A DNA stretch of 63,063 nt, the filler included, from Folioceros fuciformis (Eukaryota), in the NCBI GenBank assembly GCA_049999805.1. It is 3 parts of 3 records of this genome, joined end to end, with 100 filler letters (N's around TTAATTAATTAA, not from the genome) between each part and the next. Parts side by side here need not be neighbours in the genome. Positions count along the whole stretch, not along the records: positions 38,653 to 63,063 come from JBNGIO010004200.1; 2 more parts are not named here. One strand, written 5' to 3'. Every line of letters starts with the position of its first letter. The stretch's first letter is position 1. Below, one piece after another: positions 8,034 to 49,910 of the stretch. A program made the position numbers and the translations under genes. The notes below the pieces were generated by a model. That model was not told the origin of the DNA and searched no databases. It worked only from the letters and a program-made list of their open reading frames with translations.

Positions 8034-11000
8034 CATCTGGGCCATGCAAGTCAAGACCATTCTTTGAGAGAATGGTTTGTGGGATGTTGTGACGGGTACC
8101 ACCCCAAAACCTGCAGCGACTGCACCAGTAGCTGATCAGGATGCGTGGGCCATGAAGGACCTGCGTGCATTAGTGGTGATCCAGCCAGCCCTGGACGGGT
8201 CAATGATGCACTACACACAGGATGTCGAAACTACAAAAGCAGCTTGGGATGCTCTCACACAATCCTACCAGGTGGTGAATGGGGCAGGCAACCTGACAGC
8301 CACACGACAGTTTTACAATTGCAAGATGCGGGAATCTGACCCAATTGAGCAACATGTGAGCAAGTTCCGAACACTTCGTTCAAAGCTTACATCAAGTGGA
8401 ACTCCCACAATGGAAATGCAAGCAGCCACAGCCCTGCTTCTTTTCCTGCTTGATAGCTACCGGACCTTCGTGAGCAACCACAGCACGAGGCTTCGCCAGA
8501 TAGCTCAAGCCACACTTGCAGGACAAGTACTAGCCATGTCCCTTGCAGATCTAATCGGAGCTCTTCTCGAGGAGGAGTCCTCCAGACAAGCAAATCGAAG
8601 TGGACCCTCCCACAGGGGAGAAGCCTCAAACAGAGTACTTTATACAAACAAGGGTACTCGACGACCTCCACCTCGTCAAACCTATCAAAGGGACAACAAC
8701 GGAAGTAAGAAGCCTGCAGCTAGCACGAGAACCAAGAAGAAAGGTCCGTGCAATTGGTGTTTGATACCTGGACACTGGGAGGCAGACTGTCGGAAGAAGA
8801 AGGTAGGTGAACCTCATCGGGTAGCACCTCCAGAATCAAATGTGGCTCATTGCACGGTGAACACGTTGCTAGCCGTCTACATGGTAGCAACCCCTCAGTA
8901 CAAGCATTCCTGGTACTTAGACTCTAGAGCTTCCTCACATGTCTGTCATACTTTCAAAGCTTTTTCAGAGTATAGGAAGATGCCACGAGGTCAAGTTGTG
9001 TTGCTTGGAGATGACCGTGGTCTCCCCATAGCTGGTATAGGCAAGGTCCCTGTACAGCTCATGAATGGGACCACAATAGACCTTATTGAAGTTTTACACA
9101 TCCCAGCAATGGTTAAGAACCTTGTATCTATACATTTGCTTGACACCCAGCACATGCTGGACGTAATGTTTGCTGGAGGGGAGTGTAAGGTGCTAGACCC
9201 CGCATTAAAGGACAAGGTCGTCATTCGAGGCACACCTGTCTATAACCTGTACAAATTAGACATCACATACAAGTTAAGTGTTCAAGCTGAAACACATGTA
9301 GCTAGTCTAAGTCAGGAGAAGCTAGCTGAGAGAGAGACCCTGTTGTGGCACTACCGGCTTGGACATGCCAACTTTGACAAGCTGAAGTCTATGATAGCCA
9401 GCAACACTCTCTACAGGGAAAAATTCATGATAAGGTTTGCAGACAAATAGTTCTACAAAGCCTGCGTGTTTGGGAAGCAGCATCGCCAACCCTACACTGA
9501 CAAGAACCCAACAAGGGCCACACAGCTGTTAGAATTGGTGCATACTGACATCTGTGGCCCCATGTCAACAGCAACCTTTGGGGGAGCCAAATACATGTTG
9601 TTGTTTATAGATGATTGGAGTAGGTACACAATGATCTATCTAATCAAGCAAAAGAGTGATGCTCTAGGGTGCTTCCAGGACTACGTTACCTTTGCTCAAA
9701 GGCAGACTGGTCAGCTTCTAAAGACGCTGCGGAGTGACAATGGTGGGGAATTTTGCTCACATGCCTTCAATGACTATTGCAGTAGTCTCGGGATTGCCCA
9801 GTAGTTGACCACACCCTACACTTCGGCACAAAATCCAATTGCGGAGCTCAGCAACAGGCATGTTCAAGAGTCGGCTAAATCAATGATGAAGGTGGCAGGC
9901 CTATCTAGAGGCTACTGGGGAGAAGCTGCAGCAACAGCAGTGTACCTCCGAAATCGTCTACCCACAAAGGCCTTCATTGGAGCTACACCATTTGAGCTGT
10001 GGACATCTCACAAGCCTCGAATCTCACATCTTCGAATATTTGGTGCACCTGCGTATGCGCACTTATCCAAAGACCAGAGGGTGAAGCTAGATTACAAGGC
10101 TCGTAAGTATGTCTTTGTGGGGTATATAGAAGGCATAAAAGGACACAGCGTCCTCCAGCCACACAGCACCCGAACCACAAGATGAGTTCGAACAGGGCAC
10201 TTTCGAGTCCCTGAGCTTGCCACCTACACCTACACCTGCACCTCCTGCTGCTGATCCAGAGGAGGAACCGAGCTCATTCCTGTCTGACGATGAGGACGAA
10301 GCCCCAGAAGCTGAAGAACCTGAACTGGAAGAGTAGGAACAAGAACAGGAGGTCCCTACTCAAAGTTAGCAGCCATTTGAGCCTTCTTCCCCACAGTTTC
10401 GAAGGAGCACGAGGAGACACACCTCCTCTCCATCTGAGTGGGTAAATCCACCCTTCACTGCTTCCTCTTTCTTGGTGCAAGAGGATGTTGATCCAAAAGA
10501 CTTAGGCGAGCCACTCTCCTACAAGGAAGCTCTTAGCTCGCCCGAAGCAGCAAAGTGGATTGAGGGCATCAATTCCGAGTACAAGTCCCTAGTAGACAAT
10601 GGAACATGGGAGCTTGTTGACTTACCAGCAAGGAGAAAACCAGTCACATGCAAATGGGTTTTCAAGAAGAAGCTAAACTCTAATGGAAGTGTCTCCCGTT
10701 ACAAAGCAAGACTAGTTGCAAGAGGGTAAGTGGAAGGCTTGGACTACACTGAAACATTCTCTCCAGTGGTATGTTCCACATCAGTACACTCCCTGTTTGC
10801 TATCGCAGCACAACATGATTATGCAATGGAGCATATGGATGTGAAGACAGCTTTTCTCAATGGTACCTTGGAGGAGACCATCTACATGCGCCAACCGGAG
10901 GGCTTCGAAGATCCTAGACACCCAAACAAAGTGTGTAAGCTCATCAAAACTATATATGGGCTTAAGCAATCACCTAGGGCATGGTACAATAGAATAGATA

Positions 11001-19098: not shown

Positions 19099-22000
19099 TG
19101 TTGTATTTTTGAGGTGTGAGGCAAGAGCGCGAGAGACGCTTACAAAAAAGGTGTTGTATATTTTGGCGAGAACAAGTTACGTGTACAATAACTGTCAACC
19201 GTTCCTACCTTCATGCGCGCGCACACGCGGCCACGACCTAAACTAATTAACCGTTCAAGTTGCCCTAACGTAAACCTAACTAGGACTATATATGCGTGAG
19301 TATGGGTTGCATTACGCTCCCCAACACCCCCACTCAACACTCACTCACATCTAAGCCGCCATTCGCTGTGGATCAACTTGCAAATCCGCCTTCTGAGTGT
19401 CTCCAGCAAGATCCTCCGTGCTGCTCACCTCCGCCACGCAATCTCTGAGACACCGCTGTAGCTGCGAGCTGGGTCGACAGTCAATTGTCCTACTTTGACT
19501 GCCACTACCTGTCTCTTGAGCGCCGCAAGTTGTTGCCAATTGGTCGCCTCGATGGGTGTTCGCTTTTTTGCATAGGAGAAGATTGGGCGCCGAGTAGCTA
19601 CTTGTGTCGGCGAAATGGGTTGCGGATGAAAAGCACCTCCAAGCACACCAATTCGCCTCCACGAGTGACCACCTTCTATGGTAAGCTCCCAAACCCTCTC
19701 TTCTGCAGTTTGTCAGCTTGTGTGTGTCTCATGGGTCTTTCTTGTCCAATGCCAGACTTGCAGCTGTAGCCTGCCGACTCAATCTTGGAAGACAAGTATG
19801 TTTTGACTCTCAAGAAAGCAGTTCAAAGCACGCAATTCTGTCTAGCACACTAACTTCCTAATTGTTCTCCTCAGGCACAAGGCCTAGCATCCTGCAGTGC
19901 TTCATGTGGGCTTCACTTGGCAGGGCCTTGGTGAGGATATCCGCCAGGTTTTCACTTGTATTGATGTAGCTCAGAACAATTTCCCCATGCGCCACCACAT
20001 CTCGGATGAAGTGGTGGTGCACATCTATATGTTTGGTGCGAGCATCGAACACTGGATTGCCCACAAGGGCGATCGCTCCCTGGTTATCACAATGCAAGCA
20101 AGTTGGTACCTCTTTTGTCTGTCCGATGTCCTCCAGGCACCTTCGATCCCACACAGCCTCTTTGGCAGCTACTGTAAGGGTTTTGTATTCTGCTTCCGTA
20201 CTGGAGAGGCAGATGCTTGCATTTCTTTTGTAGGACCAGGCTACAGGGCCTCTAGCAGGCGTGAAGACATACGCTGCAATCGACTTGCGGCTGTCGGGGT
20301 CGGCAGCCCAGTCGCTGTCGCAATACCCTTCCAGCAATAGCACCTTCTTTCCTGACCTCGTGTAAGTGATGCAGAAGTCCATTGTTCCTTTGAGATAGCG
20401 AAAGATTCGCTTTACCTGAGTCTAATGCTCTCTCCCGAAGTGCGCAAGAAACTGGGAAACAAGGTGGACAGGGAAAGCGATGTCCGTCCTCGTCAAGCAG
20501 GTAAGGAAGATAAGAGTGCCGACTGCATGTTTGTCCGGCACCTTTGCCATGTCTCTAACCTCCTCCTCTGTGCTTGCAGCTTGATCCTTCGTAAGCTTGA
20601 TGCCGGTTGTCAAAGGTGTTGCTACTGCATGCGCATCTACCAAATTGAACTTCACTAGGTTGTTGAGGATATACTTTCGTTGTGACAAGGTAAGTATCCT
20701 ATTTTTCTTGTCATGCTTAATCTCAACGCCCAAGCACCAGGTCAGCTCACCAATATCTGTCATGTCAAATTCTGCTTTCAGAAGATTTTTCACCATGCCC
20801 ATCAAGCTGCCAGGACCATGCGTTCTTGCCATGACTAGGTCATCAACATACACCAGGAGCATGAGATATGCTCCGCCTTTCCTCAAGATATACAGGTTTG
20901 TGTCTGCCATTGACTTCTGAAACCCGCATTTGCTAACCAGGAAACCATCCAGACGAGTGTGCCAAGCCCTGGGGCTTTGCTTCAGCCCATACAAAGTCTT
21001 GTGGAGTTTGCACACTAAGTTTTCTTTGCCTTTCTGGATGTAACCTTCAGGTTGCGACATGTATATTTCCTCTTCAAGCTGCCCGTTGAGGAAAGCGGTA
21101 CGGACATCCATCTGCTGCAAGTCGAGATCACAATGTGCACCCACAGCAAGCACCATGTGTAGTGTTGGGAACTTGATCACCGGGGCAAACGTTTCAAAGT
21201 AATCTTCGCCTGGTTTCTGTGAGAACCCCCGAACCACTAGCCGTGCTTTATGCTAGAATAAATTCTTGTTCTCACTTATGGTCGTTTTTAGTCTAGATCG
21301 AATAATCACACCTCTTCGTAATTAAGACTATAAAAGCTATGTCACTCAACCCTATTAATTAATCTTTTCTCATTCATCGATCCTGATCTTCCTCGTACTT
21401 TACACCTCTCTCGATAGATCCATCCGCTTTATACTTTGTTTTAAATACCCATTTGCATGAGATGGCCCTTCGGTTTGGTGGTAGAGGCTGCAGTGACCAC
21501 GTCCCATTCATGATCAGGGAGTCGTACTCCTCCTTAACAGCTTCCTTCCACTTGCTTGAGTCAGGACCAGAATAGGCTTCTTTCATTGTTAGTGGGTCTC
21601 TAGGGTCCACTTGTGCCACTGCCAGGGCTTGCTCAACTTCTTTTCCAACAGAAAAATCTGGAACACCAAACTGTAACATGGCAAGCAAGGATGCATCACC
21701 ATTTGTGTCCCCATCCCCCACCTTCATTCTTAGAGTCCCCCACTGTAGCTGGCATCGAGTCCACCACCTCGCCAGTTGTCCAGTAAGTGTGACTGTGACT
21801 GGTCCATTTGCTGGGGACAAATGGCACGGGAGCGGCCCGGTTCCTAGAGGGATGCCGTGATGTGGAAGCAGCTTGCTCTCCTGCAGTCTCGGGTTGCACA
21901 TCCATGTATGCTTGTGCCTCCAGGTCAGCTTCAGGGAGGTCATTTACTGCCATCTCGTCTTCACTAGCAATGGTTGCAGTGTCATCTTCAGCATCCATGG

Positions 22001-24769: not shown

Positions 24770-25450
24770 TCTTGACTCTTGGCTCGACCTTGTATCTAGG
24801 CTTTCATAATCGCTCCTACTACATTTTCTACTACGATGAGTTTTGCCTTGGTTTGGTCCAATCTTTAGCTTGCCCTCTCTCCTCTTGCAGTTGTGGGGTG
24901 CGATTAAACAACCCTAGTACTCATCTGGCTCGTTGCGGGGTGCGAGTAAACAACCCTGGTACTCATCTTGCTCATTGCGTGGTTGTGGGTTAATAGATTG
25001 CTTTGCACAACACTATGCGAAATATCATGTTTTCGTTGGCCAAGGAGGCTAGTTTTTTGCCCTACAGGGAGTGCCCTTATACTCTATTTAGCGGCATTTC
25101 TCTTCGAGTTGACCTTTTCATCATCCAAGGAAACATTACGTTTTCATTGCTTATGTGGTCGTAATTGACCCTACAAAGGTCTTGGTCTGTGCGCATATAT
25201 GTTGTCCTCAACTCCCTAGGTTGGGCTGCAAAGAGGAGTGCATCCGCCAAGATTCACAAGTACACCCTCTAGAGTCTAAACACACCTTTGTCCCCCTTGC
25301 CATTGAGACCCACACAGCTATGTGCCAAGCATTTTCCAAGGTTTTGAAGTCTAGTGCCAAGGCGGTTCATAATAGGAAAATGGGATTGGTCTTCTTCTTT
25401 TGTGTATTGTAGTGTTCTTTCAGCAAAGGGTTGCTCTACTGCGAGCTTTA
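24770..25450 (+). mobile_element. Decayed 3' end of a non-LTR retrotransposon with restriction-like endonuclease (CRE-like)
   Basis: CSCG..L...GTHLAHC knuckle, LHNTMRNIMFSLAKEA, VVIDPT, AKIHKY, HTFVPLAIET and FQQRVAL motifs spread across frameshifts; homologous to 47637-47960 on the minus strand. Confidence 0.65.
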
Positions 25451-25831: not shown

Positions 25832-26626
25832 TTAGATCTTGTCTTCCATTTTTTTAGCCTTGATAAGGGGATTGGCCTTAATAATCTCAAGTTTACCTGC
25901 CTCCTTGAAATCAAAGGAACAAGTGTGGTCTTCAGGCAAGCGATGAGTGGGGCAAAACAACTTTTGGCATCGACATTTCATAGTGGTTAGGCTTAAACGT
26001 TTCTTGCACAGAAAGCAAAGGCTCCGTTTATGAAGTGGAGCTAAAATGGTAGCGGGCTCTTGGGCCACACTGACCTCTTCACTTATTGGAACCTCCTTTG
26101 TGTTTGGAAGTTGTGTGAGGAAGCAACGAGAGCACATACCGTTTGTACTTTTATCTCTAAAGAAGCCACATTGCTTGATGCAAAGTGTGCTCACAAAGAG
26201 ATTAGGGGAAGTGATCATTTGTTCATCTTTGCTTGGAACTGCAGCACTATTCTTGGCTTCTTGTGTGGAGGTGGTGCTAGATGATGTGGATTTTAAAGTC
26301 ATTGGCTCAACAATATCTTCAGCTCCAAGCGCAATAGACTTCTCCACTTCTTGCTTAAAGGTGTCCACTGCAATTGCTGCTTGCGAAGCCTCTAGCTGGG
26401 TAATGGCTCCACGATTAAGTGCCACTTCTTGCTTGTAGCTAACAACCGCATTTGTTGAATCTTTGTTGAAGACAACATATTTTGTTGTCAATTTTAAGTC
26501 TTGAGACTTGGCTAAAGCTTTGAGTTCTTGCTTGTAGCATATTGAGCACATGTTACTAGTCTCAACCCGTCCAAAGAATCCACATCCCTTCACACAAAGT
26601 CTCGGCTCTTCTGTCCTCCTATCCAT
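25832..26626 (-). CDS. SAP: A20/AN1 zinc-finger stress-associated protein with two A20 domains and one AN1 domain (264 aa, intronless)
   Basis: LCVKGCGFFGRVETSNMCSICYK; LCIKQCGFFRDKSTNGMCSRCF; CFLCKKRLSLTTMKCRCQKLFCPTHRLPEDHTCSFDFK...IIKANPLIKAKK. Confidence 0.9.
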   Translation of the reverse strand: MDRRTEEPRLCVKGCGFFGRVETSNMCSICYKQELKALAKSQDLKLTTKYVVFNKDSTNAVVSYKQEVALNRGAITQLEASQAAIAVDTFKQEVEKSIALGAEDIVEPMTLKSTSSSTTSTQEAKNSAAVPSKDEQMITSPNLFVSTLCIKQCGFFRDKSTNGMCSRCFLTQLPNTKEVPISEEVSVAQEPATILAPLHKRSLCFLCKKRLSLTTMKCRCQKLFCPTHRLPEDHTCSFDFKEAGKLEIIKANPLIKAKKMEDKI

Positions 26627-26652
26627 GGTAAGAAAAGAGATACTCACAAGTG

Positions 26653-26820
26653 AAAGGTGATTATGACTATTTTTGAAATGAGTGCTAAGTAGATATGAAT
26701 GGGTGTACATAAAACCTACGGACACACTTATAGCGGAAAAGGTGATTAAGACTATTTTTGAAATAAGTGCTAAGTAGATATGGATGAGTGTATATAGAAC
26801 CTCCCTACACACTTATAGCT
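26653..26820. repeat. ~85-bp tandem duplication in the SAP upstream region
   Basis: AAAGGTGATTA(T/A)GACTATTTTTGAAAT...ACACTTATAGC occurs twice. Confidence 0.85.
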
Positions 26821-33409: not shown

Positions 33410-36373
33410 GCGGTAAGTATGAAAACGAATTCGCCTGGGGCTTCATCTGGCAATTTCACTTTCCGGTTTACACGATCACAAGTGGTGCCTTCCATCACTT
33501 TAAACGCAACTGCAATTCATTGCCAACAGAAAGACGGTGGCCATAGACGTGAGAGATGTCACCGCTATCACTGGCAGTTGGGGTGCCAAGCCAATCAGAG
33601 TCGGCGTGCACCGCAAGCAAGTCTGTGCCCGATTCGGTCCAAAAGGCTTCAGGCTACTAAAAGAGTGCTGAACAGCAAGAGAGCCAAGCCCCTCGATACC
33701 GTACTAGGGTGAAGCCAGTTCTGCGACAGTGAAGCGAGAGCGCTGGTGCAAGTGGTGTGGATGAGGTGAGCAGCAACGCCAGTGACGGAGTATCAGAACA
33801 AACTTCAAACTACGGTGCTGTTGTAGTTGGTGCTTCGTGACCCAACATGCTCGGATGGTTGAGTCTCGGGACTTTTGCAGTTTATAAATCTAACAGTAGC
33901 TTCCCGTTTGTCACAGATCAACTCACAGACTTGCTTCAAGCGTGTGGGTAGGCGTGTTTCTCGGTTTCCCGGCGGACCATGGGAAGATAAATGAAACCCC
34001 CCTCCCCCGCCCTCCCGTATATTACTCACGTATCAACCAGTAAGCCGGAACGTACAGAATTGTTTTTTCGGCTGCAGGCTCACCTAGATATCAACTAGGA
34101 AGCCAAAGCGTATTGAACAGATATCTTTCTTTCTGGCGTTATGTCAACTAGTAAGACAAATGGTTCATAACATGTTCTGGAGCCCCGGGCTTTCCCCTGA
34201 AACCAGCTATCTAGTGTTCTACTTATGCATCACCTGCTGGATCATTGGCTTAAAGAAGGGTTGTTGTTGTGTAGAAAGAAGGAAAGGAGAAGCATCCAAA
34301 TTTGAGAAGCTTAAAGGTGTGGCTTAGCGACTTTTAAAGGGAAAAGGTAGGGCGTTATGTCATTGGCTACTCGTGCTTTATATATGCCTTTGCTTGTTTG
34401 AGAATTGGTTAGTTGGTGTGTTATGAGCCATGGTGGGGTGGAATTATAACAAATGAATGTACAAAGTGATGTGTTTTTTTATGGTCATACATTTTGTGGA
34501 GCCCCAAGGATGTGGAAGGAACATCCCATCACTATTGTTTATGTGGTGCGAACATCACATTACAACATGTTGCAACAATGTTAGTATGTTTGTTAGCAAT
34601 CTTATTAACCATTGACAAGTAATAATCAACTATGTCCATCATCTTGCTATGGTTTTAATCTTACAGTGAAAGAAAGATTTGTGAAGTGTAGTAGAGAACT
34701 ACATTTTATGAATGCAAAGTTGCAAACACCAAAATTATGAAAACGATAGGGAGGTGTCATATACGCATTAGGGGGAGTGCACCATTTCATTGCCTGTTAT
34801 GTGGAGTGTATTGAGTTTCCTTTTGTGTATAGTGTCCTCGTCCAACGATCTATCATATTGGTTGTAACTTGTACGCGATGAGTACATGCATAGAAACTAG
34901 GTTTAGCATATAGGAATGAGTTTCTTAACAAGATGAGATGAAAAAGACATGTATAACTTAAGTTTGAGATTGAGAAAGAGATGGAGAGGAGAAACTCATG
35001 TGTGCAAGTCCATACCATTCCGAGCTTGAGAAAGAGATAGGGAAGAGAAAATCTTATGCCCTAATCCAAGCTCTAGAAAGAGAAAAGTCATGTACTGAGA
35101 TGAGAGAGAGTAAGAAAGTTAAGCAGCAAAGGTAATGCATCTTGCAGGCTTAATAAAGAGAAATAGAATAAAATTTTCTTGAATTCTTGTGTGGATAAAG
35201 AACCATAGGCCTACAATTTTCTTTAAGGAGTAGGGAGAGCTGTTTGCGGCTGTTATGGGGGTTGGTTACTTATAAAGGCGTAGGCGTAGGCGTAGGCGTA
35301 GTGGTAGCGTGTGGTTTGCTGTTAACCGCGTGTGTGCCTGTGTGCCGAGTTATATGGGTTGTCGCTCCTGATCTAGGGTATTGGATTTTGGATTTGGCTT
35401 TTTTCTGTATTTCTCATTTTGAATTTGCGTGATATACAGTACCTGGAACAGACACTAATTGTGGGCAATACCTGCGTACTGTATGTATGTGTGTATGTAT
35501 AGGTTTGTGCGTGTGCAAGAAAAAGAAAAGAAAAGAAAAGCGTAGCGGTGGGTCCTGAGTGCTACAGACAGACGCTGTCTCCTGGCTCCCCGGCCCCAAC
35601 CCTTGCTCTCCCGACGAGGCCGTGTGCGTTGATGTTCCAGGGAGCGGACGATGTGTGCTGGAGGGGGTGATGAACGGCTTGCGCGGTCTAGGCAGCGGCA
35701 TCTGCTCCACCGCCGTTGCACACCGCTACAAGCTGGCGAGGCTTGGCCTCGCGGATGGGCTTGCCACCGCCACGGCATGAAATCGCAGAGCTAGCTGGTG
35801 AAGGACACAGGCCCTTGGCCTACCGCTGCCGCCGCCCTCCCGATCCAAACCTGGGACGCCGTTGCCGCTGGGAACCTTCTGAGGCTCCGCCTTTTCAGGC
35901 CTCGCCCTCGCTCTTTCCTTCACTCTACCAGGCCACTACTTGGTGGCATTCGCTACGCCCTGGAGGCTAGTGTTGTGCGCTCGGCTCGGCTCGGCTCAAG
36001 GGTTTTGCGGGGTGGCCGCCTCGGGGACCCCCATCGCCATCCGGCTGCGCGGGAGCCATCTGCGGCTCACAGCCTTTGAAAGTTTTGCTTAAGCTTGTGC
36101 GAATGCTGATGCTCGTGGGGTGCGGCTCTTGTCCTCGCTAGCTAGCTTTTCACATCTCCTCGACGAAGGTCTGCTTCTATCTCGGCGTGTTGGCTTTCGG
36201 ATTTCCTGCTCGCTGTGGCTGTGGTGGATCGGAGGGTGGAAGCGGAGGGAGAGGGGCCTCTTATGATGCTGCTGTGAGGTTGAGGCTCTGAGGTTGGTAT
36301 CTCTTGTTGTGCGCTGGCCCCTTTGTGAACACGTCCGCTTCTTCGAGTTTCAGGTTTCAGAGGAGGGGTCAAG

Positions 36374-37690
36374 ATGCCGAAGGATCCCAGCAGCCGAGCT
36401 ATGTCCTCCAAGTCGAGGGGGCTTTACAAGCCGTACGCCACCAGCCAGCAGGGAAAGGAAGAATCTCAGGACAGCTCACCTGATAAGGACGTGGAGGACG
36501 CCGCGTTGCAGAAGGAATGGGATGATGCTACATGTCCGATTTGCATGGAGTGTCCACACAACGCGGTGCTCTTGGTTTGCACTTCTCATGACAAAGGATG
36601 CCGCCCTTACATGTGTGACACCAGTTACAGGCACTCCAATTGCCTGGACCAGTACAGAAAGGCCTCCGAGTCGGACAAGAGTGGAGGAGGAATTACTGCC
36701 GCCGTCTCCGATGTCACTGTGGATAGTGTCGCGGTTCAGGTGCCTCGGGAGAGAGTGGATCAGCGGCGTGCTCGGCAGCGAGTGGCCAGGAGAGGCGACG
36801 CAGGGGCGTCTGTGTCTGGAAGCCGGCCTGACCAACCTGTGGAAGATAGGGTTTCCGATAGAGCAGGTCCAGTGAGGCATGAGACCTCAGGGCCTTTGCG
36901 CCTTGATTCAGAGAGAATTCGTAGCGTGGATGAGGGAGACTCGCATACGGACAGATCCGAGGACATGGAGCTCTCTAGGGCGAGCTTGGACGGGAGGGAA
37001 GTTGCGGACACGGCGGTGTTTGGGAGTGCAGGGGACGCGGATCTGAAATGTCCGTTATGCCGCGGCAAGGTTAAAGGGTGGAAGGTGTTAGAGCCTGCTC
37101 GGCAGCACCTGAATCACAAGAAGCGCAGTTGCGCACATGAATCATGTCCCTTCAGTGGCACTTACGATGAGCTGAGGAAGCACGCTCGGGGAGTTCACCC
37201 TCTGGCGCGACCCTCGGATGTGGACCCTGCTCGGCAACGGGACTGGCGCAGGCTGGAGCGACAGCGCGACTTGGCAGATGTGTTGAGCACTTTCAGATCC
37301 GCCATGCCCGGGGCAACAGTTTACGGCGACTACATGATCGATGAGGATGGAGAAGAGCACGAAGAGGACGGCGAGATCGAACTTCCTGGGGATGGTGAGA
37401 ATTGGTGGACCATGATCCTTTTGTTTCAGGTTTTTGGTCCTGCTGCCAGCATGAGCACCGGTGGTCGCCCAATAAACCGCGTGAGGGGTGGAGGCGTGAG
37501 CAGACCTTCCCGCATCCGTCAGTCCAGTGCTGTGTTGTCGAGGCAGACACTTTGGGGGGAGAACTTGCAAGGCCCCGGCGGAGGAAGCGCGAATGCAGGG
37601 GCGAGTGGGAGTGGCAGTCCGGGAGAAACCAACATATCTTCCACCAGCAGAAGACGGAGAACTCGAAGTCGTAGGGGTGATCCGCAATGA
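36374..37690 (+). CDS. DUF1644 family zinc-finger protein (438 aa, single exon)
   Basis: WDDATCPICMECPHNAVLLVCTSHDKGCRPYMCDTSYRHSNCLDQY; LKCPLCRGKVKGW; KKRSCAHESCPFSGTYDELRKHAR..HP..RPSDVDP; GDY motif. Confidence 0.9.
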   Translation: MPKDPSSRAMSSKSRGLYKPYATSQQGKEESQDSSPDKDVEDAALQKEWDDATCPICMECPHNAVLLVCTSHDKGCRPYMCDTSYRHSNCLDQYRKASESDKSGGGITAAVSDVTVDSVAVQVPRERVDQRRARQRVARRGDAGASVSGSRPDQPVEDRVSDRAGPVRHETSGPLRLDSERIRSVDEGDSHTDRSEDMELSRASLDGREVADTAVFGSAGDADLKCPLCRGKVKGWKVLEPARQHLNHKKRSCAHESCPFSGTYDELRKHARGVHPLARPSDVDPARQRDWRRLERQRDLADVLSTFRSAMPGATVYGDYMIDEDGEEHEEDGEIELPGDGENWWTMILLFQVFGPAASMSTGGRPINRVRGGGVSRPSRIRQSSAVLSRQTLWGENLQGPGGGSANAGASGSGSPGETNISSTSRRRRTRSRRGDPQ

Positions 37691-38652: not shown

Positions 38653-41600
38653 GATGGATCTATCGAGCCACACACGAAGAACCAGTCAATATCTTATTGC
38701 CTGGTCCTCCCTATGTGCCCGGACAGACCCCTCCCCTACATTAGATCGGGTTAGCTCACAACACAAGACGTAAGGCAGCATACTTCATACCTCTTGCCCT
38801 TCTCAAGGTCATAACCTTCAAGAGGGGGCTCTTGCGTATGTTAGACAGCTCTACGTCCTCACAAGGTAGTGGTGATATAGCGCATCTTAGCGGTTCAGAC
38901 ACAGATCACATTGATCCCCAAGACTTCATTGAAGATCAACTTGTAGAACAGTTACAGGCACTTACCTTAGTATTGAAGATGGGCACTATGCCACCACCTC
39001 CCCCACCTCGGGTTTGGCAACGGTCTGCACTCGTCCCCACTTTCACCTCAGACATGAAGGAGAAAGATCAATTTAATGGCACAAAGTATCTAGTTTGGAA
39101 GGTGCGCATGCGATCTGCCCTTGAAGCCCAAGAGTGTGGCGAGTTGTGGACCAATCAATTCCAGAACCGGACCCGAACAGCACACCCCCACCATTTGCTC
39201 TCGTAGTGGAGCGTTGGCTGTCCCTCAACTCTATTGCACTAGCTTTCCTTATCAACGGCTTGGATGAAGACCTTGTACCCACTATGGAATTCTTGACACA
39301 CGCACATCAAGTTTGGGATCAGCTTGCTAGCACATACCAAGTTAAAAATTTGATGTCACTCTGTGCTGTAAGACAAAAATTCTATACGTTGAAGATGAGG
39401 GAGGGGGAGAAGATAGCCGCCCACGTCAGCAAATTTCGTCAAGTCAGATCTCAACTACTGAGCATGGGCACAAAAATGGACAAATTGGATGTGGCAGCTC
39501 ACCTCCTCATAACGTTACCACCCTTGTACCAAAGCTTCATCACCAGGTAGAACACTCCATACCTAGCAGCCTCAGCTGGACGAACTTCAACCTATACAGT
39601 CGACATCCTTGTGGGTGCCCTGTTGCAGGAAGAACAAGCTAGAAACAACTCATCTGGAGGCTCTCATTCCAGGGGAGATAAAATTCTGTCTGCAAAGCAC
39701 ACACCCAACAGACGAAAGGGTAAATCTCAAAACAATCAGACTCCCAGCTCTTCTCACGCAACCAGAAGAACTGGTTTAGGGTAGCTGCAATTGGTGTGGG
39801 ATTGCTGGCCATTGGGCTCATGAATGTAAAAAGAAGAAGGCTGGTGAGCCACAGAGAACTCCTAAGAATTTGGCTAGTGTTGTTAAGGAAAAACCCAGTG
39901 ATACCAAAGGCGTAATTAATATACTTACAGTATGCTTGACTAGCTCTTGCCAGGACAGTGAGAGGTGGTACTTAGATTCAGGTGCCACAGCTCATATTTG
40001 TCGAAACAAGAGTCAATTCAGCTCCTTGAACTTGTGTTGTGAGAGCAACAAAGTCCTTCTTGGAGATGAAGAGACTGACAGCATCCTGCAAGTCAAGGGA
40101 CAAGGCAAAGTCATTTTCAAGCCGAAGGACGGTTTAGATCTTATTCTGGAACGCATCCTGTTCGTACGAGCTATGGCGAAGAATCTATTGTCCATGAACT
40201 AGCTCTTGAAGCTAAGGACCCTCGAGATGAAGGCCACTGGTGACATGTGCAGCTTCTACAGGAAAACAACTCCAAACATTTGCATTTTCAAGGGCCTACT
40301 TGATAATGATTTGTATCGCCTTGACCTACTGCCTGTGACGACTGCCACAATTCACAGCACTGGGTTAGCTAACATGGACACCAAGCAATTGGCTTTGTTA
40401 TCGCACACAAGACTTGAGCATCCCAACAGGCAGAAACTAGTTGACATGTCCTTGAAACAATGTCACAGGGAACCACTTTCCTGTTGTTTCAAGGAATAAC
40501 CATCCTGCGAAGCGTGCATAATTGCCAAGCAAAAGGAATCCGTTCCCTTCCACTCCAGCAAACAGGGCTACCTCTGTGTTGGACCTCATTCACGCTGATA
40601 TATCTGGAAGGATACAGGTTCCCTCCATAGGCGGTTCCAACTATTACCTCACCTTAACAGACGACTACAGTCAATACAGTTGGACCTTTCCCATGCAGCG
40701 GAAAAGTGATACCTTCGAACTGTTCAAAGAGAGCTATGGCTTCCTGTAGTACAATGCTAAACAGGTTCATTGCTCAAGTACCTACATACAGACAACGGAA
40801 CTGAGTTTGTCAATATTGCTTTCGATGATTACCTCATTGCGGAAGGCATACAGAGACAACTGACTGTACCATATACACCCCAGCAAAATAGGGTGGCCGA
40901 GAGGAAGAACCAGACCCTTCTGGCCATGACTCGGAGCATGCTTCTCTGGTCTGGACTTTCTCGAGCATATTGGGTTGAAGCTATTGTCTCTACAACTTAT
41001 GTCTTGAACAGAATCCTTACGAGTTCTGTTCCTGATCAGACACCCTATGAGGTTCTCTACAAGAGGAAGCCGAGCCTACTGCACTTGCCTGTTTTCGGCT
41101 TTCGAGCATATGCACTTGTTCCCTCAGAGAAACGTCGTAAGCTAGACCCCAAAGCCCAAGTCTTAATTTTTGTAGGGTACAGTGAACAGTCTAAGGCTTA
41201 TCGACACTATGACCCAACTAACAGGAAGATGTCCCTCTCATGTAGTGTCACTTTCATTGAGCCAAAACACCCTCTACATACATGTGTTTCAGACTCAGAG
41301 GGAGTTACAGTCCCCGATGACCTAGAGGGAGCACCTGCCCTCCCTACATTTGATGGACAGGTCACCTATCATGTTTATCCCCAAGACACTGAACCTTTAG
41401 CAGTTCCACCAGATGTATTATTGGAGGACGATATGTTACCTGCAGTTCCCCCACCTGATGTTGCTGCAGATACAGACCTTGTGCTTGAGAGAGCAGACCC
41501 AGGTCATCTTGAGGAACCCGGATCACATGTCCACTCACAGGCTAGTGAAGGGCCCCACGATGACTTTAACTGGTTTGAACAAGACCCAAACCTTGCAGCT

Positions 41601-43563
41601 CATGAGCACCCGATGGAGGACTTGGTCCCACCAGCTCCTGCGGCCCCTGATCCTGTCCCTGAGGAGGTGGCTCCTCGACGTTCTGGATGCCATCGACCAC
41701 CTCCTGAGCAGTGGGCAGAACCTAGATATCAATCTATCGACTTCAAGAACAAGGCAGCTGCAGCAACAACAACACATCCTCTCCTTCTGATATACCTAAT
41801 GAACCACATACATTGACTGAGGCATATCATGGACCTGACAACCAGTAGTGGCATGGAGCGGTGGAGGATGAGTACCAGTCACTGATTAAAAACAAGACTT
41901 GGACTCTTGTCGACCTACCACCTAGCCGCAAGCCCATCTCTTGCAAATGGGTTTTCAAACATAAACTGAATGGTGAAGGCAAGATGGCCCGATACAAGGC
42001 CAGACTAGTGGCCCATGGCTTCACCCACGTAGAGGGCCTGGACTATCAGGAGACATTCTCCCCTGTCGTCTAAGCCCAATCAATTAGTATGCTCCTTGCA
42101 CTAGCCACTGAGTTCGATTTGGAGCTATGACAGATGGATGTCTGCATAGCATATCTCTATGGCTCTTTAGACGAGGAGCTCTACATGCAACAACCAGAAG
42201 GTTATGTTAGCAAGAAGCACCCAAATCAGGTCCTTGAATTGCTAAAATGCATTTATGGGCTTAAACAGTCTGGCAGGGTTTGGTGTTTTACAATCCAGGT
42301 TTACCTGCTGGGACTATCCTTTGTCCAAAGTGCTGCAGATACTAACGTCTACAGGTTGGCTAGAGGCTCATCTTTTGTCGTGCTTGCATTGTACGTAGAT
42401 GACATAATTCTGGTCACAAACAGCAAACCCCTGTTAGCTGAGGTCAAACAGATGCTTAGCAATAAATTCTAAATGAAAGACATAGGGGATCTCAAGTTCT
42501 GTCTAGGGATTCAAATCCTTAGAGTCCGCAAGGAGGGTCTCTTGATTATCTACCAGCATAAGTATATCTGTGAGATCTTGCACAAGTTTAGGTTGGATCA
42601 GGCTCGTCCGGCAGTTACCCCATCAGCTTCAGGCATCAAACTAACAGTTGCACAATCCCCTACCTCCATTGAAGCTAAAAGGGATATGGCAAAGGTGCCA
42701 TACAGACATGCTGTTGGTAGCCTCATATTCATATCCAACTGGACTCGTCCTGATATTCAATACTCCGTTAGCACTGTCTCACAATTCATGGAGAATCCTG
42801 GGTGCCCCCACTAGGTAGCTGTGAAATGCATCTTCAGGTACCTGCAAGGAACTCACATGTATGGCTTATTTTACAAGAGCAATGGCACAGGAAGTTTTCA
42901 CTTATCAAGCTTTACAGACGCTGACTGAGGCTCCGGCAGTGATGGACGTCGCAGCCTGTCCACATATTGTTTTCTTCTAGCCAACACGTCTGTGAGTTGG
43001 AGCTGTAAGAAACAAACATCTATCGCTCTGTCTTCAACTGAAGCTGAGTATAAATCACTTGCAGAGGCCTCCAAAGAGGCAGAGTGGGAGCGCCAATTTC
43101 TGAAGCACCTTGGCTACCCACAACCTGAGCCTACCCTCATCGTATGTAATAACACAGAAGCTCTTGACCTTATTGCCCAACCACGATATCACGCCAGAAC
43201 GAAGCATATCAAAATCCAGCACCATTATATACGAGATGCGGCTACAAGAGGAGTGGTCAAAGTCGATTATGTTGATACAAACCTCAACACTTCTGACATT
43301 TTCACCAAGCCTCTACCTAAGTTCAAACACAATGCTCATATGGCAAGACTCGGACTACACGACTATGTTGCTTATTTCGAACAAACAACACTATGAGCTT
43401 GAGAACTTATCTGGATTGGGAGGGGGGGGGGGGGGTGGTGTGGGAACCTTAGTTCCCTTATAATTTAGTTTGAACCTCCCTTCTCCTGACAAGGGTTCTC
43501 TGCAAACAGTCAGTCGCGTTAGTCCTCACACACAAGAACAACACACAATCTTGCTAGCCTACA
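38653..43563 (+). mobile_element. Decayed Copia element 6 (gag-pol ~38979-43396; 5' LTR lost in the gap; putative 3' LTR 43439-43563)
   Basis: FNGTKYLVWK gag, CNWCGIAGHWAHEC, WYLDSGATAHIC, IHADISG, HTDNGTEF, YKARLVAHG, LYVDD, SSTEAEY; G-rich PPT then TGTGG...CTACA (LTR end tentative). Confidence 0.9.
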
Positions 43564-44839
43564 AGTGGATGAAGCTCAACAGACCATCAAATCACACTAC
43601 AGCAGAAGCCACAGGATTCCCTTCACCTTCCTCATTGGCAAGAAAAAATTCCATTGGCAAAGACACCTTGGCGGCCATCTTCAACAGCTCGAAGGCATGC
43701 TTAACACTAGTATCTTCAGGCCGGTTGAGGATTTCCTCGGCTCGCCTAACCCTGGCTACAGCAACCTCTGCTGACCACCTACCATCCCACCCAGCAAACT
43801 TGATGAGCTGCTCCACCCTGAATGGCGTCCAGCTGGTACTACCCTACTCTGCCCTAATCTTTGCCGGCGGAGCTGCTCCCTTCATCCTTTTTCTCTTTTC
43901 CTTTGTCGAGCGAGCGCAGCTGTGAGTATCCATTCCATACCTTCGACCGCTGCGTGTCGCCATGTCTCAAAGGTGAGTCACAACGATGAAGGCGGTCGCC
44001 GCGACAAGAAGCGCTGCCAAAGCTAGTTTTCAACTGAGGATTTGGCTGCCTGTTGAGCCTGGAGCTCAACAGTGTTGCGCAAGATGGCGCTTCCGCTTCT
44101 TCACTAAACGGGACGCAATGCCGAATACCTTTGGTGCCGCCATTAGTTGACGCCGTTAGGTTAAGAAGGAGTGTCAAAAGGGTAACCCTATACTGGTCAA
44201 CTAAAGAGACACATTAGGGTTATGTGACACACATGATACTTAAAAAATTTTTGCTCATTAATCAATATACACTTTTGGTATCCTGTAAGCATAAGGGGTC
44301 TTTGCTCTCCTGGCTCTCACCCTTTGCTACCTCAAGATTTACATCACATGTTCCAGCTATTTCAGCTCACACAGGAGAGATACGCAAAAGGAAAGGAAGC
44401 ATCACGGCTATGCTTTGATTGCATGACAGCGTGCAAGACAGCGGGACTTCTTGTTCAGCGATGACGTGAATGTTCAAGATGATTGTGAAACACTTTGTGC
44501 ATTGTCCTTATGCCAAGCTTTCTAAGCGAGCTATCAAAAGAATGTTCAATTAATCCATTATGATCACTATGTACCTACAGCATTCCGTTACCAACCACCT
44601 GGATGGTCATTCCTGAACCGTTGTCAACTGTGCACAAAGTTAACCACCAAAACCCGTAGTCCCCAACTGTTCCTTCGTGAGAACTTTTCATTCGTTAACT
44701 GCCTCTTTAGTCAAAACGCAAGCAATTTATCCCTTTCTACGCACATATCTGCCATGAGTGAATAACTTATGTAGTCACAATTTGCACAGCAAGTTCACAC
44801 AGATGCAAAACTCCAATAGACTTTCTAAGTCATAACAAC

Positions 44840-45160
44840 GGGCTGCGGTTGCAATGTTCCAAGAGCGCGGGATGTGCTACGTTTGCAATGTTCCAAGAGC
44901 GTGGGACGTGTTGCGGCTGCAATGTTCTGAGAGCGTGGGACGAGCTGCGGCTACAACGTTCCAAGAGCGCGGGATGCGGTGTGGCTGCTATGTTCCAAGA
45001 GCGTGGGACGCGGTGCGGCTGCAATGTTCCAAGAGCGCAAGACGGGTTGGGGCTGCAATATTCCAAGAGCGCGGGACACGTTGCAGCTGCAATGTTCCAA
45101 GAGTGTAAGATGCGATGCAACTGCAATGTTCCAAGATCACGGGACTTGTTGCGGACATGG
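44840..45160. repeat. 34-bp minisatellite, ~9 copies
   Basis: GCAATGTTCCAAGAGCG core at 44851, 44885, 44919, 44953, 44987, 45021, 45055, 45089 and 45123. Confidence 0.93.
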
Positions 45161-46142
45161 CTCTTTTAGGTAATCAGTGTTTTTGGTAATGGAGTTTAAG
45201 ATCCCGGGATATGTAACGGAACCAGGGCCTGCACCCGACATGCACCCTGCTTAATGTGAGGCTATTTACAACCACATGATGCTACGGAAGGCGTAGTGAG
45301 AAGCTTGAGTTGCATGGAGAAAGAAAGCTTAAAATAAGGTATGAGCGTTCTTTCAAAAGTCACTTGGAATAGCGCAATGACTCTTGTCGGCTGTGATGTG
45401 AAAGCCTCATCAGCACTTTCATCGCCATCTCCACGAGTTAGTACTGGCCGACATCGGGATGAATGTGAAGGGGGTGGGCCACCTGGTGATAGTGCTACAG
45501 GCCAACCTAGCCACCCGTTCCTCTGGCTGGTGCTGTCGAGGAACTAGGTTGGTAGTAGTGGCCCAGGCGGATGCTCCGTGCATCAGGTAGCACTCCTCCC
45601 TCCTAGTGTGTGCCCTAACTTGCGGTACCTTGGAATGGCTTACAGTGGGCTAGATGTCAATGCAACCTTGTACTAGGCTGTATCTGGAAGGCTCGCCAAT
45701 GGTAGGACAAGCTCAACCAAGGAGAATCAAATGAATCAACTGTGGAGAAAGAAAAGATCCCACTCAAGATCCATCAATTGTGGAGAATTAAATGAATCAA
45801 CTCGTAATTTATTTATTTGAGAAAAACAAGATGGAAAACCCCATATACTCCTAGGGAGGGAGATAAACTGTGATAGGAATAGTAGCGGCTAACCCTGAAG
45901 CCTAAAAACTACCAACAGCACAAAAAACATCATGTTATGGGTTAAGAAATGCTCTAGTAGATCCCAGTGGTATGTACTAGCTACCACTAGGGTTGCCGAC
46001 GCTCCCACTCTTGCCCAAGTTGTCGTTTGTATATGGAATTAGCCAATGCTCACTATAGAGCAATAGAAATCCTTGTCAAAAAAATGCTACATATATGAAA
46101 GAAGAAGACCAAGTCCAGTTTTTCCTGTTGTGACCAGCTGTG

Positions 46143-46856
46143 CATCCATCGGGAGTGATACCCAAGCTAGTCAACGTGGTGGCAAGCACCACGCTTCACG
46201 TGCGATTCGACTTGACTCACTTGGCTCTCCACCTTTCCAACGTGGAGTACCATCTTGAGCAAAACGGTGGAGCCATGGCAACGGTGAGGGTGCGACTCAG
46301 CGGGCCCTCAAGGCCTTACTTGACGTTGCGCGTGTTAAGGACAGGGCGTGTGGTCGTGCTAGGACCAGCATTGCGCGAGTAGCAGAATGGTGTTTGTGAG
46401 AAGCTTGTCGCGATGGTGAAGAGGCTGGGGTATGATGCACACTTTGATCCCAACGACCTCAAGGTCACTGACATTATGGTGCATGCCGCACTGCTTGAAG
46501 ACGACGCGGATGCGAACGCAATCGACTTGGCAGGGCTTCACACAACCCTAGCTGAGGGCATGAGCGCACTCAAGTTGAAACTAGTGCGCTTGGACCCTTC
46601 AGCATTGAGAGGGTTCAGTGGGTTGACAGTGAAGTTCGAGGGCAGCACCGAGATGTCCGTCACAATCTTGCATTCGGGACGCCTCCACATCGCTGCCAGA
46701 GAAAGCACCATTGCACCACTGTACAACTTGTTTGAGCAGTTGCATCCCATCATGGCGGCACACCGAATGAAGAGGAGGGCGCTAGCGAACCCCCGCGCGC
46801 CTCGGAGTGTGCGATCGTGGGCGGTCGGGGCCCCGCGCAAGAGAAAGCAGTTGTAG
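46143..46856 (+). pseudogene. Divergent TATA-binding-protein-like gene, copy 1: both core repeats, one in-frame TAG at 46380-46382, N-terminus missing
   Basis: HPSGVIPKLVNVVASTTL..FDLTHLALHLSNVEY...TGRVVVLG...VKRLGYDAHF..LKVTDIM...IDLAGL...FSGLTVK...SGRLHI...LFEQLHPIM parallels plant TBP HPSGIVPTLQNIV...SGKMVCTG...KLGFPAKF...FPGLIYR...SGKIVL...FENIYPVL. Confidence 0.85.
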
Positions 46857-47242
46857 GCTAGGGGCAGTGAGTTAGTTACGACAGGCGCGGCCCGCCAATG
46901 TAATCATGCTACTTGCGATAGACCATGCATGGCCCACGTCGGCCTCACATTTTGATCCGTTTGGTCGGCCGCGCAATTGGTGGTTATACGGGGTTATGAG
47001 TAGTAAACAAAAGAAGGAAGAAGATTTCATGGAAGCAANNNNNNNNNNATACGTGTGTTGGCGTGCGGTGTATGCATATAGAGCTAGTAGTTGCTAATGT
47101 GGGCCGGTACTAACGTGCTCCTGCGGCGGAATCCAAAAGATGTCCCTGCGCGCACTTGGAATCGTTTCCGCGTGTGCCAGCGATCCAACGAAAAGGATGA
47201 CGCCGTGCGGCACTCGGGATCGCTCCCGCGCACGTGTACGTC

Positions 47243-47636
47243 ATGTCGGGCCCGACCGATGTGGAGATGCATGACCCGCGCGAAGTGGCTGCCACAGCCG
47301 AGATGAGCCGGACGAGGACCATGGCGCGGTATGTGTATGAAGACACGCCCACGGGATTAGCATTGGTCGACGCTAACGAGGACGCGTGCGCACTTCGAAG
47401 AGAGCATCCATCGGGGGTGATACCCAAGCTAATCAACGTGGTGGCAAGCACCACGCTTCACATGCAATTCGACTTGACTCACTTGGCTCTCCACCTTCCC
47501 AACGTGGAGTACCATCCTGAGCAAAATGGTGGAGCCATGGCAACGGCGAGGGTGCGACTCAGCGGGTCCTTGGGGCCTTACCTGACGCTGCACTTGTTCA
47601 GAACAGGGCGTGTGGTCGTGCTAGGACCTGCATCGC
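47243..47636 (+). pseudogene. TBP-like copy 2: N-terminal extension plus first core repeat, truncated by a LINE remnant
   Basis: MSGPTDVEMHDPREV...RREHPSGVIPKLINVVASTTL...LHLFRTGRVVVLGPAS; 47405-47636 closely matches 46143-46374. Confidence 0.82.
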
Positions 47637-47960
47637 TTCAAAAACGTGCAAAATGCCTTGCACATGGCCTTGTGGATCTCAATGGCAAGGGAATTAAAGG
47701 TGTGTCTAGCCTGTAGAGGTTGTACTTGTGAACCTTGGCCGATGCACTTCCCTCTGCCACTAAACCTAGAGAGTTGAGGATAATATGCTCGTAGACCATG
47801 TCCTGTGTGAGATCAATTATGACCATGTCAGCAAGAAAAACTTATTGATCTCCTTAGATGAGGAAAAGGTTAGCACGAAGAGAAACACCAATAAGTAGAG
47901 TGTACGAGCACTCCTTGAAGGGCAGAAAGCCAATTTCCTTGGCCAACAAAAATATGACAA
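47637..47960 (-). mobile_element. Second remnant of the RLE/CRE-like LINE
   Basis: Reverse complement aligns by eye to 25020-25350 (GCCAAG.TTCACAAGTACA, CCCTTGCCATTGAGA, TTGGCCAAGGA). Confidence 0.7.
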
Positions 47961-48878: not shown

Positions 48879-49391
48879 ATGGAGACGAGCCTGAGAGTAG
48901 ACTCCAGTAGGCGCTCCCTGGCGCTCTACTTCACAGAGCGCTTTGTGCATCCACCGAGCAATACTGGAGTGAGGCTATCGGGCCTGCTCAACACCAAGGA
49001 TGGCACTGTGGACGGGGAGGTGCAGGTGCGGAAGCGTTTTCTTCCAACGGTCCTGGACGCCGTGGACACGACTCTTCGCTATGGCACAGATTCTTGGGAG
49101 CCTTTGCGGTGCTCCCTGTCGGCCAAGAAGTCGTGGCCGCTCACTGACGACGGCCTGCTGACCGTGGACGTCAAGAGCCGGTTGAGCTATGGCTATAGCC
49201 GGAAGGAGGTGAGCGCTAGGGCCTGCCTTGAGCTCAGCAGGAAGATCTACTATTTTACCGAGGGCCAGGACCTCAAGATGATGCTCGGTTATGATATTGT
49301 GAACCGCCAAGTTTATGCTAAGCTGCGAGAAAACAATTGGACTTTCAACACGGATTTTCGAGGCAACTGGATGCTGCTCTATGATCTCTGA
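48879..49391 (+). CDS. OEP21: Chloroplast outer envelope pore protein 21 (170 aa, intronless)
   Basis: METSLR N-terminus; G.LNTKDG; AKK.WP.T.DGLL; ELS.KI..F...QDLK...GYD; RENNWTFNTDFRGNW...YDL C-terminus. Confidence 0.9.
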   Translation: METSLRVDSSRRSLALYFTERFVHPPSNTGVRLSGLLNTKDGTVDGEVQVRKRFLPTVLDAVDTTLRYGTDSWEPLRCSLSAKKSWPLTDDGLLTVDVKSRLSYGYSRKEVSARACLELSRKIYYFTEGQDLKMMLGYDIVNRQVYAKLRENNWTFNTDFRGNWMLLYDL

Positions 49392-49606: not shown

Positions 49607-49910
49607 TGGACTTTCGACACGGATTTTCCAGGCAACTGGGTGCTGCTCTATGATGCTTGGATGCTGCTCTATGATGCCTGGATGCCGCTCTATGATGCCT
49701 GGACGTAGCTCTATGATCTCTGAAAGCAGCATTGGCTTCTGGTTGATTCTATGTTGTCGGATTCGTTCCATGTTGTCTTCTGCTCATGTCAATGAAGGTG
49801 ACGACTTGATGCAGAATGATCAGAGAAACAATTCTAGATTCTCGGAGGAATGTGTTCTTGCTCACTTTTGGATCAGGGGATCGCTGTCTCATTGTCTACA
49901 AACTCGAAGT
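49607..49910 (+). repeat. Tandem duplicate of the OEP21 last ~17 codons and 3' UTR, with an internal 21-bp unit x4
   Basis: Aligns to 49338-~49570; reads WTFDTDFPGNWVLLYDAWMLLYDAWMPLYDAWT*LYDL*. Confidence 0.85.

Follow-up and report, generated by a model that had tools for sequence, protein, structure and literature searches.

The 63,063-nt stretch of Folioceros fuciformis DNA considered here (the window) contains, at positions 46139–47635, two fragments of a sequence related to the TATA-binding protein (TBP), which are probably the decayed remains of a real, lineage-specific and highly divergent family of TBP paralogues. The locus is not a gene; it consists of two dead, complementary fragments of one gene family, and is in itself ordinary repeat debris, its interest resting on the family. 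A preliminary description of this DNA had placed here an intact or nearly intact TBP-related factor, a view that has to be given up: what is present are two truncated and permuted fragments lying in a repeat and showing decay at CpG sites. The multi-copy gene family behind them looks real, and the longer of the two, fragment 1, is, as judged from profile searches and a structural model, a TBP-fold sequence far from any ordinary TBP.

Structure of the TBP-like locus

The contig evidence cited throughout comes from Logan contigs of three DNA runs (X1, X2, and X3) of the same organism, belonging to one sample and one study, and compared with the window at a likeness of at least 85%. The features of the locus are as follows (position, strand, feature, and basis).

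45990–46138, plus strand: left flank, the same dispersed repeat as on the right, collinear with its empty copy (junction alignment)
46134–46856, plus strand: fragment 1, TBP-like frame of 240 codons with both lobes and the basic tail (translation, Pfam, AlphaFold2, Foldseek)
46139–47635, plus strand: inserted segment with both TBP-like fragments (junction alignment to the empty repeat copy; contigs joining the flanks)
46380–46382, plus strand: internal TAG of fragment 1 (translation; CAG, coding for Gln, in paralogous contigs)
46857–47039, plus strand: 3' non-coding part of the unit, multi-copy (sequence; contig depth 65–258 compared with ca. 7–14 for window-identical contigs)
47040–47049, no strand: scaffold gap of 10 N, true length unspecified (sequence)
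47050–47242, plus strand: region upstream of fragment 2, presumed remainder of a promoter and 5' leader (sequence; paralogue indels of +4 and −1)
47243–47636, plus strand: fragment 2, comprising the ATG, an N-terminal region of 53 codons, and 78 codons from the beginning of lobe 1 (translation, Pfam)
47636–47957, plus strand: right flank, dispersed repeat (blastn within the window; 47640–47957 is 77% identical to 25345–25025 on the minus strand)
25025–25450, minus strand: insert-free ("empty") copy of the flanking repeat, continuous across both junction sites (blastn, alignment)

Fragment 1 begins immediately downstream of an in-frame TGA (46131–46133) and ends with a TAG at 46854–46856; it has no start codon, its translation containing no ATG before residue 48. 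The motifs quoted in the preliminary description, HPSGVIPKL, EQNGGAM, LRVL, VTIL, TDIM, and the tail RKRKQL, are all found exactly as given there in the frame 46134–46856, and LHLF in fragment 2; the loop insertions and the basic tail described along with them are equally recognizable. The frame contains one stop, as against 4–17 in each of the five other frames, and one stop or fewer was obtained in only 10 of 5000 dinucleotide-preserving shuffles of the frame (mean 7.4, P about 0.002). The G+C content at its first, second, and third codon positions is 0.60, 0.44, and 0.67, compared with 0.54, 0.42, and 0.72 in the neighbouring open reading frame (ORF), and the length differences between fragment 1 and TBPs are of whole codons only.

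Fragment 2 lies within an ORF (47201–47716) whose frame continues for 26 codons into the flanking repeat, up to a TAG at 47714–47716; its homology to fragment 1 ends at 47636, and it is cut after 131 codons. The two fragments overlap in 233 nt (47404–47636 and 46142–46374) that are 91% identical, with a start-to-start spacing of 1262 nt. The order of the parts is the 3' part of the frame, the stop, a spacer of 183 nt, the gap of 10 N, an upstream region of 193 nt, and the 5' part of the frame, and together the fragments read as ca. 1.2 units of a head-to-tail unit of ca. 1.26 kb. A complete start-to-stop frame is absent from the locus, fragment 1 lacking an ATG and carrying the internal TAG, and fragment 2 being cut.

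Alignment to the empty copy (25450–25290, minus strand) indicates that the insert 46139–47635 replaces ca. 12 nt of the repeat, with no target-site duplication at either junction. The insert is bounded by neither LTR-like direct repeats (LTR, long terminal repeat) nor terminal inverted repeats, and only two short inverted repeats were found in its region. Contigs of X1 and X2 that lack the insert connect 46125 directly with 47640, and 46069/46073 with 47636. Since the flanks match one member of the repeat, both fragments belong to the same insertion. The junction pattern, with ca. 12 nt lost and no target-site duplication, fits end joining rather than transposition, and the segment may have been inserted by end-joining repair, its source being a tandem or circular donor from which it was excised or copied.

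Just before the gap, ca. 150 nt after the stop, there is a purine-rich stretch (ca. 47003–47030). The purine-rich sequence 47003–47039 may represent a variable A-rich tract or a remnant of poly(A), which bears on the question of RNA-mediated spread; of the poly(A) tract and target-site duplication that mark a processed retrocopy, nothing but this stretch is found at the insert. The two longest of the listed contigs covering this part of the unit end at 47007.

Relationship to TBP and the multi-copy family

Lobe 1 of fragment 1 is recognized by the Pfam TBP family (PF00352, gathering cut-off 22.9 bits) with 40.5 bits and an E value of 2.5e-10 over residues 10–97, and fragment 2 with 42.6 bits (E 5.6e-11, and 9.2e-11 in a second search). 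In a sequence search of the PDB the best matches are TBP chains, starting from E 3e-10 and all located on residues ca. 3–115. Lobe 2 alone (residues 84–240) matched no Pfam family, nor any TBP when the PDB was searched by sequence; aligned by hhalign with a TBP-only profile, composed of 40 TBPs that are 45–75% identical to each other's reference and excluding the query, it reached a probability of 74.8% and an E value of 2.6e-5 over 107 collinear columns, which span the region from helix 2 of lobe 1 through the C-terminus.

The distance from known proteins is illustrated by a HMMER search of all 1.84 billion cluster representatives of ca. 15 billion proteins, in which phmmer found 90 matches at E≤0.001; a single one of these reached E≤1e-10 and none E≤1e-30, and the highest score was 61.3 bits. 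Matches over a lobe length or more are 24–37% identical, higher identity (48–49%) being found solely on stretches of 45–62 residues, and eight of the 90 align across both lobes in one stretch, e.g., P0006 over residues 8–238 and P0014 over residues 6–237. The twelve matches inspected are ordinary TBPs, TBP duplicates, or fragments, and among the cluster names for the ten top matches there are only those of an Acer and a Blattamonas TBP. A word-indexed protein search over 1363 candidates gave no match at E≤0.001, scans of viral (IMG/VR) and metagenome contigs gave no relative, and the ca. 15 billion predicted proteins include no relative closer than ordinary TBPs. The HPSG start, formerly regarded as plant-type and as a sign of descent from a plant TBP, occurs also in the TBP of the oxymonad Blattamonas (P0015) and is for this reason not diagnostic of plants. 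Open-access full texts yielded no account of a TBP-like family from plants or algae that is both divergent and amplified, and the excerpts of a review of TFIID evolution (PMC6672047) and of Ravarani et al. (PMC7221094) contain nothing on plant TBP paralogues. The multi-copy TBP-like family seems undescribed.

The AlphaFold2 model of fragment 1, obtained with an 86-row alignment of TBPs as input, has a predicted local distance difference test score (pLDDT) of 84.2 and a predicted template modelling score (pTM) of 0.75, and its order of strands and helices is that of two TBP lobes. The top Foldseek match is an Arabidopsis TBP (1qn3_A; E 1.6e-13, template modelling score (TM) 0.72 on the target, 212 columns, 23% identity), and TBP chains in general give a TM of 0.62–0.76 over 200–212 columns. 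Two of the checks suggested in the preliminary description, a Pfam search and structure prediction, return a TBP-fold match (E 2.5e-10 and, with Foldseek, 1.6e-13). The two-repeat TBP core proposed there stands in full for lobe 1, which passes Pfam, while lobe 2 is recognizable only by the TBP-only profile, the full-length phmmer matches, and the fold.

The contigs of the family are 239–551 nt long, the figures on its variants come from 40 of ca. 240 rows of the contig comparison, and a contig depth sums all alike DNA in the run and is no strict copy count. Contigs identical to the window have a depth of 8.4–13.7 in X1 and 7.2–7.3 in X2, and those of the unit that are ca. 6% off the window (15 of 267 and 32 of 544 letters) a depth of 111 in X1 and 56–72 in X2. 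This major variant, at ca. 8–10 times the single-copy depth, extends over the spacer and the upstream region, and other contigs, 12–13% different, are found at single-copy depth. The depths therefore point to a near-identical major variant present in several copies, accompanied by older, diverged ones. No contig identical to the window is among those listed over 46185–46763. Paralogue indels within the frame comprise a clean one of +3 nt (behind 46553) and a skip of 33 nt (46792–46826) with possible letters between its ends, and the stop itself is preserved despite a 5-nt insertion there; those in the non-coding part of the unit, +4 and −1, are not multiples of three. An X1 contig of depth 111.7 carries the motif TATATATA just before 47050, i.e., in the gap of the window, ca. 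190 nt upstream of the ATG.

Two further observations concern the runs themselves. In run X3, 64 of the 91 listed letter changes in the segment 45800–47800 are C>T, which makes the run look bisulfite-like, and it could thereby report the methylation state of the TBP-like copies. Another run, X4, guessed to be RNA, matches the right-hand flank only and carries no weight for or against expression.

The window copy bears traces of decay. It is listed as differing from the major variant at 28 sites. At 20 of them the window has T or A and the variant C or G, 12 of these being at CpG; of the remaining eight, four go in the opposite direction and four are transversions. This pattern is a signature of methyl-cytosine deamination in the window copy, as in silenced repeat DNA. 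The internal TAG is likewise a CAG-to-TAG change: position 46380 is C (CAG, Gln) in six of the six covering contigs listed, two in each of X1, X2, and X3. The preliminary description was right in assigning the stop to a Gln-equivalent site, Gln being found in 27 of 85 aligned TBPs as well, and the contigs over 46380 that read C represent paralogues and not the window copy, given their numerous further differences from it.

The residues typical of TBP were compared in the only 14 alignable columns in which at least 40 of the 85 TBP rows have a residue; the commoner TBP residue is present ten times in the paralogue and once in the window, with three ties. The window copy has lost P41 (present in 83 of 84 TBPs), F68 (83 of 85), S80 (68 of 85), A87 (76 of 85), V115 (72 of 80), I165 (46 of 71), and F179 (62 of 68). 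F68 and F179 correspond to the second and fourth DNA-kinking phenylalanines, the sites being those given in an excerpt of PMC3142196, where they are Phe193, Phe210, Phe284, and Phe301 of human TBP. At these four sites the window copy has M, L, F, and L, and the major variant M, F, F, and F, the first being Met in the HMMER alignment, so that the full set of four is found neither in the window copy (one of four) nor in the major paralogue (three of four); fragment 2 has Phe at the second site.

The remodelled DNA-binding saddle of the preliminary description is thereby divided in two. The losses of Phe at the ALIF- and LLIF-equivalent sites are decay of the copy; Phe is retained at the former in the major paralogue and fragment 2, and at the latter in the major paralogue. 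Most of the remodelling belongs to the family, because a nucleotide difference of ca. 6% cannot explain a protein divergence of 65–75%. Compared with TBP, the stirrups are extended, those of lobe 1 by 4+3 residues and that of lobe 2 by 3 residues, a 14-residue acidic loop is situated at the start of lobe 2, Asp replaces Asn of the lobe-2 QNIV motif (TDIM), and a basic tail is found at the C-terminus. Judged from the alignments, the stirrup insertions, the acidic loop, the lobe-2 Asp, the basic tail, and Met for the first Phe are properties of the family.

Origin and possible function of the family

A long coding history is suggested, indirectly, by a frame kept at this distance from TBP, by length changes of whole codons, and by core TBP residues kept in the major variant. 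The long-lived, selected lineage proposed in the preliminary description is upheld in so far as so much divergence, the frame being kept, points to prolonged existence as a coding gene; as for selection, none is shown by the ratio of non-synonymous to synonymous substitutions (dN/dS). Several facts weigh against regarding the fragments as relics of a real divergent family. Relative to the major variant, the window has 19 non-synonymous and 7 synonymous codon differences, which is near the neutral expectation, and dN/dS between the two window fragments is 0.65 (13 non-synonymous and 7 synonymous differences in 231 nt); both counts are too small for a test of selection and are dominated by the decay of the dead window copies, and they fit neutral decay of these copies and are silent on a live lineage. 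A complete, open member of the family was not seen among the contigs of 239–551 nt. The gap 47040–47049 hides the join of the fragments, which makes the unit length and the tandem order provisional; the predicted fold is supporting evidence and no independent proof, because the model was conditioned on a TBP alignment; and the ca. 15 billion predicted proteins contain no member of the family.

A cellular TBP as the ancestor is the simplest reading of the origin of the family, which would then have spent a long evolutionary period as a coding gene. Its product would be a very divergent two-lobed protein of the TBP fold, ca. 290 residues long. An acidic N-terminal region would be followed by a saddle that retains three of the four kinking phenylalanines but contacts the minor groove differently, has enlarged stirrups, and carries the acidic loop where lobe 2 begins; the basic tail resembles a bipartite nuclear localisation signal. 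In TBP, the stirrups form the sides facing TFIIA and TFIIB. The most likely role of an intact member would be that of a nuclear TBP-related factor whose concave face binds DNA with a changed preference, or of a competitor for the partners of TBP. A more specific proposal, that the 8–10 near-identical copies are intact, transcribed genes of a TBP-related factor (TRF) of independent green-lineage origin, amplified as a ca. 1.3-kb unit in tandem or as a circle, with a TATA promoter of their own and a promoter or partner specificity made unlike that of TBP by the stirrups, the acidic loop, and the minor-groove contacts, is tentative and should be regarded as possible rather than probable.

TBP is among the most conserved eukaryotic proteins, and its divergent paralogues TRF1–3 enable separate core-promoter programmes in animals. 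A multi-copy saddle family of the green lineage, 23–37% identical to TBPs, would constitute an independent experiment akin to the animal TRFs and would supply natural saddle variants for asking which contacts decide the binding of TATA. If the proposal of amplified intact genes were true, animals and protists would no longer be the only groups with a TRF-like "system factor", and this one would be amplified. The locus itself contributes no more than a decayed copy that is dated, together with a clear case of insertion of a permuted fragment into a repeat.

With canonical TBP (Arabidopsis 1qn3/1vok) the family shares the two-lobed saddle over ca. 205–212 aligned columns with the same order of strands and helices, and, in the major paralogue, Phe at three of the four kinking sites. 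It differs in being only 23–37% identical, whereas TBP cores are otherwise highly conserved, in the Met at the first Phe site, longer stirrups, acidic loop, basic tail, and lobe-2 Asp, and in forming a multi-copy family. Animal TRF2 (TBPL1, TLF) is likewise a TBP paralogue that keeps the fold with changed DNA-contact residues. According to the excerpted text of Duttke et al. 2014 (PMC4180970), TATA is not bound by TRF2, which is defined by a change of three TATA-contacting phenylalanines and arose before bilaterians, while TBP paralogues occur in protists, plants, and animals. By that account three Phe are changed in TRF2, compared with one of four in the major variant here; the window copy does have three replaced, a number that includes two losses specific to the copy, and the TRF2 pattern is therefore not that of the family. 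The likeness to TRF2 would be convergent, because the host is a green-lineage organism, and an origin independent of bilaterian TRF2 may be assumed, the neighbouring ORFs pointing to a streptophyte host. The dinoflagellate and trypanosome TBP paralogues mentioned in the same excerpt (PMC4180970) resemble the family as independent duplicates with altered Phe outside animals, but are single host genes of known expression, whereas the family is multi-copy and known from fragments and short contigs.

The closest competitor of a host-encoded paralogue family is a mobile or self-amplifying unit of ca. 1.3 kb (a tandem amplicon, an extrachromosomal circle, or an unclassified transposon) with its own promoter, of which the family would be the cargo, its frame staying open because the unit, rather than any host need of a second TBP, makes use of it. 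The near-identical copies at a depth ratio of ca. 8–10 alongside older diverged ones, the multi-copy state of the spacer and the upstream region, the piece of 1.2 permuted units, which requires a tandem or circular donor, the TATATATA motif 5' of the ATG in a paralogous contig, and the position of the window copy in a repeat-rich stretch beside a degenerate copia element would all suit such a unit. Yet it contains no transposase, reverse transcriptase, or Rep, shows no target-site duplication, terminal inverted repeats, or LTRs, and has a codon-position composition like that of the neighbouring host-like ORF, which makes this explanation rather unlikely. A rolling-circle replicon of the geminivirus, nanovirus, or satellite type is not indicated either, there being no Rep in the unit and no TANTATTAC nonanucleotide origin motif, even with one mismatch allowed, in 46126–47639, of which the gap 47040–47049 is unseen.

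That the locus is a neutrally decayed retrocopy of an ordinary TBP, and that a selected divergent lineage never existed, is very unlikely. It would account for the apparent lack of introns, the in-frame stop, the missing start codon of fragment 1, the purine-rich stretch ca. 150 nt past the stop, and a dN/dS of the copies not distinguishable from 1; but at 23–37% identity the frame has a single stop (P about 0.002) and length changes of whole codons only, whereas a sequence that had drifted so far under neutral decay should be riddled with stops and frameshifts; in addition, the major paralogue retains nearly invariant TBP residues, and a target-site duplication is absent. The insert does resemble a processed pseudogene, or filler DNA at a repaired break, in being a promoter-less, truncated coding fragment in a repeat, with sequence lost and no target-site duplication; it differs from a processed pseudogene in being permuted, longer than one unit, and inclusive of upstream non-coding DNA of the next unit, so that a simple retrocopy is an unlikely source. 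Still less credit is given to fragment 1 as part of a live gene, with the TAG ascribed to a mistake in the assembly or to strain variation, and with the AG at 46136–46137 serving as acceptor for an exon further upstream. C is indeed read at 46380 in every covering contig listed, and a pyrimidine-rich stretch ending in AG precedes the frame, but the numerous further differences of these contigs from the window mark them as other copies, the acceptor-like stretch is part of the flanking repeat, and P41, F68, S80, A87, V115, and F179, kept by TBPs and the paralogue, are lost in fragment 1. Giant-virus insertions are known in green algae, and viral TBP-like models, which share with the family a divergent TBP fold with insertions, match the predicted fold (69 BFVD matches at E≤0.001, the best 6.1e-9). 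A remnant of an integrated giant-virus genome (nucleocytoplasmic large DNA virus) carrying its own TBP is nevertheless extremely improbable: the viral models match more weakly and are 9–16% identical, far below the 23–24% of cellular TBPs, the viral contig scan gave no relative, and the neighbours are copia fragments and host-like ORFs, with no viral genes. The virus-carried factor considered in the preliminary description finds no support in these data.

Surroundings of the locus

The window represents nuclear DNA of a green-lineage organism, and the ORF matches, as far as sequence comparison goes, point to a streptophyte poorly sampled in the libraries. It is largely composed of nested retrotransposon debris around a few host-like ORFs, and Rfam gave no matches in it. 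The features outside the TBP-like locus are listed below.

8068–9450 (plus strand), 14907–16825 (minus strand), 20422–21252 (minus strand), 38745–43925 (plus strand): copia gag, protease-barrel, integrase, and reverse transcriptase fragments
25835–26812, minus strand: A20/AN1 zinc-finger ORF, AT-rich and CpG-poor (G+C 0.42, observed/expected CpG 0.36)
36329–37687, plus strand: DUF1644 ORF (G+C 0.58, observed/expected CpG 0.82)
48879–49391, plus strand: uninterrupted ORF of 170 codons, 2 kb downstream

The copia-type element at 38745–43925 is degenerate, with gag, a zinc knuckle, a protease barrel, an integrase SH3 domain, and reverse transcriptase distributed over several broken frames; within 28000–63063 no LTR pair matching it was found. 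Between its end and the TBP-like insert lies a 34-nt tandem array (44838–45145) of 9.1 copies with 78% matches. The zinc-finger and DUF1644 ORFs are 10 kb apart, and the empty copy of the flanking repeat begins ca. 400 nt beyond the end of the former.

The 170-codon ORF contains no Pfam family; the best matches of its 48879–49388 part are at 77% (a Logan protein), 46%, 45% (Chlorokybus, by its EukProt name), and 32–34% (two angiosperms). It presumably resembles the chloroplast outer-envelope protein OEP21, a name given by none of the tools. Its last ca. 60 nt are repeated 269–340 nt downstream (49607–49760), where they adjoin a 21-nt tandem repeat (49636–49717).

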